Source of the DNA: Escherichia coli O157:H7
Lineage (GTDB): Bacteria > Pseudomonadota > Gammaproteobacteria > Enterobacterales > Enterobacteriaceae
DNA: 64,000 bases
Reading direction: 5' to 3' (one strand)
NCBI RefSeq assembly: GCF_013167455.1
Contig: NZ_CP038328.1
Shown: one piece after another, positions 35,381 to 35,417 of the stretch
How positions within the stretch are numbered: the stretch's first letter is position 1
How the letters are laid out: each line of letters opens with the position of its first letter
Translations under genes and position numbers: made by a program
The notes under the pieces: generated by a model
Told to the model about the DNA's origin: nothing
Database searches by the model: none
Seen by the model: the letters and a program-made list of their open reading frames with translations, nothing else

Positions 35381-35417
35381 GATTATTGCGCAGGCACCGT
35401 TTTATCCGTCTGCGCAA

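Follow-up and report, generated by a model that had tools for sequence, protein, structure and literature searches.

In Escherichia coli K-12 MG1655, the genes yfeK (b2419, 124 aa) and yfeS (b2420, 244 aa) are followed by cysM on the opposite strand (locus b2419–b2421), such that 955 bp containing yfeS separate the yfeK and cysM stop codons. yfeK is among the sigmaE promoters that have been modelled (PMC3326320). Its promoter, yfeKp, is sigma24-dependent, and yfeK and yfeS form a sigmaE-dependent operon (PMC11502571, PMC2685091). Overexpressed yfeK stops growth, while overexpressed yfeS does not (PMC2685091), and a yfeS knockout is sensitive to boric acid, a phenotype that complementation restores in part (PMC11502571). 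Our literature search found no paper that treats the yfeK/cysM locus as a variable site. The comparison of the MG1655 and EDL933 genomes by Perna et al. in 2001 is said to have defined strain-specific “K-islands” and “O-islands”. The yfeS segment resembles such K-islands in being a short, K-12-specific stretch that is absent from O157:H7, lies between backbone genes, and has an atypical base composition, but differs from them in being a single-gene cassette without mobility genes.

Here we examine the yfeK/cysM junction in a 64-kb stretch of the E. coli O157:H7 genome (hereafter, the window). In our reading, to which we assign a probability of roughly 0.85, the window carries the “empty” form of this junction, which is the more widespread one and most likely ancestral, K-12-type genomes have gained a cassette, and yfeK suffered a separate frameshift in the O55:H7/O157:H7 lineage.

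The window lacks the 958-bp segment present in K-12

The window and MG1655 share the same flanking genes in the same order and orientation: cysU/W/A and cysM are convergent with yfeK on the opposite strand, and pdxK, crr, and ptsI follow. The flanks are 97–98% identical at the nucleotide level (97% over the 287 bp aligned at the 3′ end of cysM), and O157:H7 chromosomes match a 1-kb stretch at the junction with 100% identity. cysM (34469–35380, plus strand) encodes an intact, 303-residue cysteine synthase B, as also annotated by PGAP on identical O157:H7 sequence. Its product scores 555.5 bits against TIGR01138 (cutoff 394.2) and covers profile positions 2–290 of 290, which identifies it as a full-length CysM. 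A REP element at 34410–34445, between cysA and cysM, partially matches the Rfam family naRNA4 and gives rise to a spurious N-terminal extension of the cysM reading frame, whose listed start is consequently 34391 instead of 34469.

The initial annotation stated that K-12 carries yfeS between yfeK and cysM and proposed that the gene is missing here; both statements hold. A tblastn search of the entire 64-kb window with YfeS gives a best E value of 0.59, and a blastn search of the same window with the K-12 cassette returns a single 30-nt REP-type match at 59228–59257. Pairwise alignment with K-12 places the missing segment at a single point: K-12 has 958 additional bases, which comprise yfeS and two REPs, between 35385 and 35386, the insertion point defined by the blastn breakpoints for K-12-type genomes, and one additional A in the run at 35429–35433. 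The 37-bp junction of the window does not occur in K-12. As the presence or absence of yfeS is a structural difference, a chance statistic is not applicable to it.

The initial annotation read the difference as presence/absence variation of a gene, and this variation extends across the species. yfeS is found in 1,387 of 5,426 complete E. coli genomes, and a contiguous yfeS-less junction is found in 3,810; the gene is thus absent from 74% of E. coli, and about a quarter, including K-12, carry the cassette. Each of the two classes displays one junction type in every locus examined. While “lacking” is accurate for the window, the loss that the word implies is unlikely: the yfeS-less state is the majority state and most likely the ancestral one. 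Presence or absence of this accessory gene is a polymorphism of an ordinary kind, already reflected in current annotation. What we add is that K-12 shows the minority and probably derived state, that the 37-bp gap belongs to the dead 3′ end of a yfeK pseudogene specific to one lineage, that the cassette is common to E. coli and Pseudocitrobacter, and that the inserts at this junction vary among Enterobacteriaceae.

Departures from the two normal states also occur. The junction is split in some other way in about 54 genomes, and two yfeS-containing loci are disrupted by insertion sequences, with IS150 in yfeK of E. coli ECCTRSRTH03 (L003 7453–9273) and IS1A in yfeS of strain LR-03.

A frameshift in yfeK accounts for the 37-bp spacing

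The cysM stop codon (TAA, 35378–35380, plus strand) and the stop of the yfeK open reading frame (35418–35420, minus strand) are separated by exactly 37 bp (35381–35417), as first reported. This distance is correct for the frames as they stand open in the window but does not represent yfeS-less strains, in which the typical spacing is 2 bp. The open frame (35418–35750, minus strand) begins with GTG, encodes 110 residues, and ends in ...QPFYMR-stop. It belongs to the YfeK family, scoring 250.1 bits against NF007646 (cutoff 171) over residues 1–109 of 110, and K-12 YfeK matches PF17263 (DUF5329) with E = 5e-31. The full-length frame of 122–124 residues with its C-terminal ...LHALIAxTDK... segment is absent from the window. 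In the PGAP annotation of identical O157:H7 sequence, yfeK is a pseudogene with a frameshift; including its out-of-frame tail, it spans 35383–35750 on the minus strand and extends to within 2 bp of the cysM stop.

Alignment to K-12 localizes the lesion to a homopolymer at 35429–35433, where the window has A5 (T5 on the yfeK sense strand) through the deletion of one nucleotide. Ten further E. coli loci, none of them from the O157 lineage, all have A6 at this run, as do all remaining lineages examined. The A5 allele replaces the last 15 residues of YfeK, including the conserved LHALIAxTDK motif, with YMR-stop, and the premature stop falls 35 bp ahead of the normal one. Restoring one A to the window sequence yields a 122-residue product that ends in ...TDKTVPAQ-stop. 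PGAP annotates an intact 122-residue yfeK in all five yfeS-less E. coli of other lineages that we compared; every one of them has A6, and their tails read ...TDKTVPAQ-stop in four and ...TDKTVSAQ-stop in one. The stop of the undisrupted frame corresponds to window positions 35383–35385, 2 bp from the cysM stop. The interval at 35381–35417 therefore consists of a true 2-bp spacer (35381–35382) and 35 bp of dead yfeK 3′ tail, and it measures 37 bp instead of 2 bp solely on account of the yfeK frameshift carried by the O55:H7/O157:H7 lineage.

A homopolymer run is a typical place for a sequencing error, and the short spacing could in theory reflect such a miscall or a collapsed region in the assembly. 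We surveyed the allele by counting exact matches to a 91-nt probe centered on the run. The probe finds the exact A5 allele in 307 records, all independently sequenced complete genomes, and the remaining sampled matches all span 92 nt rather than 91. The carriers include EDL933, Sakai, and TW14359 along with three O55:H7 genomes, among them CB9615 and RM12579; each of the 60 records listed is O157/O157:H7, O55:H7, or a strain whose name gives no serotype. A near-identical 110-residue truncated YfeK (P0034) also represents a protein-database cluster of 356 member sequences, and the contiguous yfeS-less junction recurs at the population scale given above. These population data already refute an artifact, the chance of which we regard as negligible. 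The yfeK frameshift is a genuine marker of the O55:H7/O157:H7 lineage, and the A5/A6 run distinguishes this clade cleanly. The loss of one base from the A6 run dates to the common ancestor of O55:H7 and O157:H7.

We also asked whether the GTG with which yfeK begins is another lesion specific to O157 and dismissed this: strain MS1170 combines GTG with an intact reading frame, making this an ordinary polymorphism.

Upstream of yfeK, a promoter-like site with the sequence GAAACTT-N16-TCAAA (35784–35811, minus strand), which we take to be of the sigmaE type, is shared with K-12, identical in 12 loci, and conserved in all E. coli loci compared. Since O55:H7 and O157:H7 strains lack yfeS and have a truncated YfeK, the sigmaE-regulon and boric-acid phenotypes described for K-12 (PMC11502571, PMC2685091) should not be transferred to EHEC unchecked.

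An inverted repeat lies within the yfeK tail

The yfeK tail contains a perfect 9-bp inverted repeat, ATTGCGCAG (35385–35393) and CTGCGCAAT (35410–35418), separated by a 16-nt loop. The predicted hairpin (35385–35418) has a minimum free energy of −18.8 (plus strand) and −14.0 kcal/mol (minus strand). The 37-bp interval might on this basis act as a functional element, either a bidirectional terminator or an RNA-stabilizing hairpin for the convergent cysM and yfeK transcripts. The repeat is kept in yfeS-less E. coli and in Pseudocitrobacter faecalis, a G-to-C change weakens the stem in the yfeS-containing allele and in one empty allele of Pseudocitrobacter, and a terminator scan detects no alternative terminator-like site between both genes. 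The folding energy, however, is ordinary when compared with dinucleotide shuffles (z = −1.2 and −0.9 for the two strands): of 200 shuffled sequences, 22 and 31 reach an equally low or lower energy. An intrinsic terminator requires a GC-rich stem and a loop of 3–8 nt followed by a U-tract; here, the loop is 12–16 nt, no T-run follows on either strand, and the scan for Rho-independent terminators at the junction is negative. No Rfam family matches the hairpin. In intact alleles, the hairpin is entirely yfeK coding sequence, and the left arm is missing from Escherichia sp. E1V33 and from other genera. We therefore reject the hairpin as a terminator or structured RNA on the basis of its z of about −1, the absent U-tract, the terminator scan, and the Rfam search, and consider a functional role for the interval quite unlikely.

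Anatomy of the K-12-type cassette

The cassette measures 958 bp and has a GC content of 40.5%; the window as a whole has 52.7% and cysM 55.9%. It is promoterless and contains a strong ribosome-binding site (AGGAGG), yfeS (244 aa), and two inverted REPs. In the orientation of the window, the order is cysM-TAA-G-GGATTAAT, the two inverted REPs and yfeS on the opposite strand, and then GGATTAAT-TTCC-TTCCGCAGG leading into yfeK. The cassette alters the last codons of yfeK, converting an end of the ...PAQ-stop type, to which the window belongs aside from its frameshift to 110 residues, into the ...PAEGN-stop of K-12. The junction is identical across five yfeS-containing loci of E. coli and four of Pseudocitrobacter.

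An 8-bp direct repeat, GGATTAAT, marks both ends of the cassette in all yfeS-containing E. coli and Pseudocitrobacter loci examined, with 7 of the 8 bases conserved in one of them. Exact repeats of 8 bases are frequent by chance (eight families occur within 1.1 kb of this AT-rich segment), so this repeat is meaningful only by virtue of its location. We found no terminal inverted repeats joining the cassette termini and no mobility gene; the sole open reading frame, yfeS, matches the WGR family alone. By eye, the boundaries also differ from those of integron cassettes, as they read GGATTAAT and not GTTRRRY, and the palindromic sequences that follow yfeS are REPs of the canonical kind.

The two REPs (L001 3036–3069 and 3105–3133 in the K-12 locus) match the consensus GCCKGATGCG-N-CTTATCMGGCCTAC, lie within the cysM-proximal 150 bp of the cassette, and give partial matches to naRNA4, a REP-derived Rfam family. 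They resemble the REP/BIME elements of Enterobacteriaceae, and the window REP at 34410–34445 is of the same type. No REP fitting this consensus is present at the window junction, the only matches in the window being 34410–34445 and 59276–59311, and the hairpin at 35385–35418 differs from REP/BIME elements in that it does not fit. The linker between the K-12 REPs (L001 3070–3112) matches the Rfam family ES036 (CssrF sRNA) with 40.9 bits against a gathering score of 37.6.

YfeS combines a WGR domain with an unmatched C-terminal domain

Residues 9–71 of YfeS, which the window does not encode, form an N-terminal WGR domain (PF05406, E = 6e-18) like those of PARP1, PARP2, PARP3, and the Bacteroides fragilis protein Q64V53 (PDB 2ra8). 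A profile built from 47 YfeS homologues and compared with solved structures retrieves only 2ra8 (E = 5e-23) and the WGR domain of PARP3. The AlphaFold model of YfeS has a pLDDT of 96.2, and Foldseek searches with this model return 2ra8 and the WGR domain of PARP2, recognizing the WGR part alone; the helical C-terminal domain of about 170 residues has no convincing match among solved structures by Foldseek. Unlike the PARPs, YfeS has no catalytic PARP domain. By analogy with the PARPs, our best guess is that YfeS may bind nucleic acid via its WGR domain. We also considered YfeS as a defense gene and rejected this, as neither YfeS nor YfeK matches any PADLOC-DB family at E ≤ 0.01.

The distribution of yfeS favors a gain

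Outside E. coli, the yfeS-less junction predominates. Six further loci from Escherichia, Citrobacter, Klebsiella, and Superficieibacter were examined, and the gene is absent from all of them. Species-representative genomes in which yfeK and cysM adjoin with no yfeS between them include a divergent E. coli representative, Escherichia sp. E1V33, P. faecalis, Citrobacter amalonaticus, and Superficieibacter; Escherichia albertii has a different insert. The nearest relatives of YfeS outside the E. coli/Shigella cluster share at most 65% identity, and the named ones are from Paenibacillus, Lysinibacillus, Clostridium, Dysgonomonas, and Bacteroidota. Pseudocitrobacter is the only other genus in which we found yfeS at the yfeK/cysM site, and both yfeS-present and yfeS-less alleles occur within it. 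Between K-12 and Pseudocitrobacter, yfeS is 95.9% identical at the nucleotide level, compared with 85.5% for yfeK and 89.6% for cysM.

The Pseudocitrobacter arrangement is present on 14 contigs, some longer than 1 Mb, with a Pseudocitrobacter-specific left context. Chimerism or misbinning of metagenome-assembled genomes (MAGs) was considered as its source and discarded, given that the 14 contigs include chromosome-size ones. Separately, the comparison of K-12 cysA (L001 4436–5315) with a Pseudocitrobacter MAG reveals a mosaic in which several 100-bp blocks are 96–100% identical and their neighbors 82–88%. Such a pattern would fit gene exchange that reached past yfeS into the cys operon, or else strong constraint on that operon.

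Taken together, the frequency of the yfeS-less state, the outgroups, the low GC content, the relatives outside E. coli/Shigella, and the identity with Pseudocitrobacter point to a horizontally moving cassette that a minority of E. coli acquired, and away from a loss in O157. Whereas the breakpoints, frequencies, base composition, frameshift lineage, and presence in Pseudocitrobacter are direct observations, we infer from them a gain rather than a loss, and an insertion as its mechanism. The cassette would have inserted exactly at the stop-to-stop point of the convergent cysM and yfeK genes, which lie 2 bp apart in the empty form, and the event would have left the 8-bp direct repeat GGATTAAT on either side. 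yfeS would then be expressed through read-through from the sigmaE-dependent yfeK promoter, a co-transcription that the operon literature makes plausible.

An insertion with 8-bp duplication makes a specific prediction about the preceding allele, which would carry exact ATTTAAGGATTAATTYCCTTCCGCAGG without the cassette. Removing the cassette and one copy of the repeat gives TAA-GGA-TTA-ATTTCCTTCCGCAGG. A search of the 5,426 complete E. coli genomes does not find this deduced empty site, TAAGGATTAATTTCCTTCCGCAGG; the best match is 94.4% identical. The real empty alleles read ...GATTATTGCGCAGG in E. coli, ...GTTTATTGCGCAGG in P. faecalis, and ...GTTTATTCCGCAGG in another Pseudocitrobacter, and are set apart from the predicted site by an indel of 6 nt together with one or two additional changes. 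Because no exact empty site exists among these genomes and the real alleles differ from it by an indel, the direction of the change and the insertion mechanism are not proven at the level of the sequence itself.

The absent empty site is among the observations that could favor the opposite course, in which ancestral E. coli had yfeS and most lineages, that of the window included, later deleted it, leaving the junction as a deletion scar. Removing the K-12 bases between ...GGATTA and TTCCGCAGG... produces TAAGGATTATTCCGCAGG, only a single indel and a single substitution away from the observed TAAGATTATTGCGCAGG, and a Pseudocitrobacter allele with an intermediate ...PAE-stop tail exists. Every PAEGN-tailed yfeK examined, including those from Pseudocitrobacter genomes, is linked to yfeS. 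The 124-residue YfeK of K-12 resembles the proteins of Klebsiella and Superficieibacter in the length of its tail, which equals that of the Klebsiella tails, and in its Ala-Glu pair, so judged from these sequences the K-12-type tail could be old. A deletion would nevertheless have to explain why yfeS is missing from most E. coli and from all sampled Escherichia outgroups, and why the yfeS-less genomes all show a single junction, where independent deletions would have left several different scars. The same empty junction occurs in P. faecalis with normally diverged flanks, the cassette lies 12 GC points below its surroundings, and the cross-genus similarity of yfeS exceeds that of its flanks. 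We accordingly regard deletion as unlikely and favor the gain of the cassette by K-12-type genomes.

The relevance of the finding beyond annotation hygiene is small. K-12 represents a minority and probably derived state at this locus, and yfeS is not a core gene of E. coli but an accessory one, which probably arrived by horizontal transfer and travels as a passenger on the sigmaE-regulated transcript of yfeK.

The yfeK/cysM junction carries other inserts in Enterobacteriaceae

Different inserts occupy this junction in different Enterobacteriaceae. E. albertii NBRC 107761 has a 1.84-kb insert in place of yfeS (L020 4370–5749) with two unannotated open reading frames, one of 280 residues without a Pfam match and one of 175 residues with a weak, sub-threshold match to DKNYY; the yfeK tail of this strain reads ...TVELKNK-stop. 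In Citrobacter sedlakii, a 3.8-kb insert (L022 4431–8142) contains open reading frames of 628 residues, with no Pfam match, and 654 residues, with weak, borderline TPR matches. Pseudocitrobacter has a 135-residue gene of the SnoaL_3/DUF4440 type just upstream of yfeK (L092 2981–3388), and by eye, a similar frame of 135–140 residues lies between yfeK and cysM in Klebsiella spallanzanii (L016 4398–4805) and Superficieibacter electus (L021 4473–4895), which suggests that small genes shuffle around yfeK.

These inserts raise the idea that, throughout Enterobacteriaceae, the stop-to-stop yfeK/cysM junction is a conserved landing site at which small cargo without a promoter of its own is introduced by an unrecognized mechanism that leaves an 8-bp direct repeat, and is thereby placed under the sigmaE-driven yfeK transcript. 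The cargo would comprise yfeS in E. coli and Pseudocitrobacter, the SnoaL-like gene in Klebsiella and Superficieibacter, the two frames of E. albertii, and the two large TPR-type frames of C. sedlakii. We consider such a general landing site improbable.

Two further loci carry inserts of similar size. The junction of Enterobacteriaceae bacterium LSJC7 contains an insert of about 1.2 kb with a 244-residue open reading frame on the minus strand (L025 4542–5276), and the insert in a second locus (L026) is likewise 1.2 kb long. In Escherichia sp. E1V33 (L013 1415–1425), cysM ends in TGA and yfeK, with the tail ...TVPSNP-stop, reads into the end of cysM, so that the convergent genes overlap. The same ...TVPSNP-stop tail is found in YfeK of Pseudocitrobacter cyperus (P0026).
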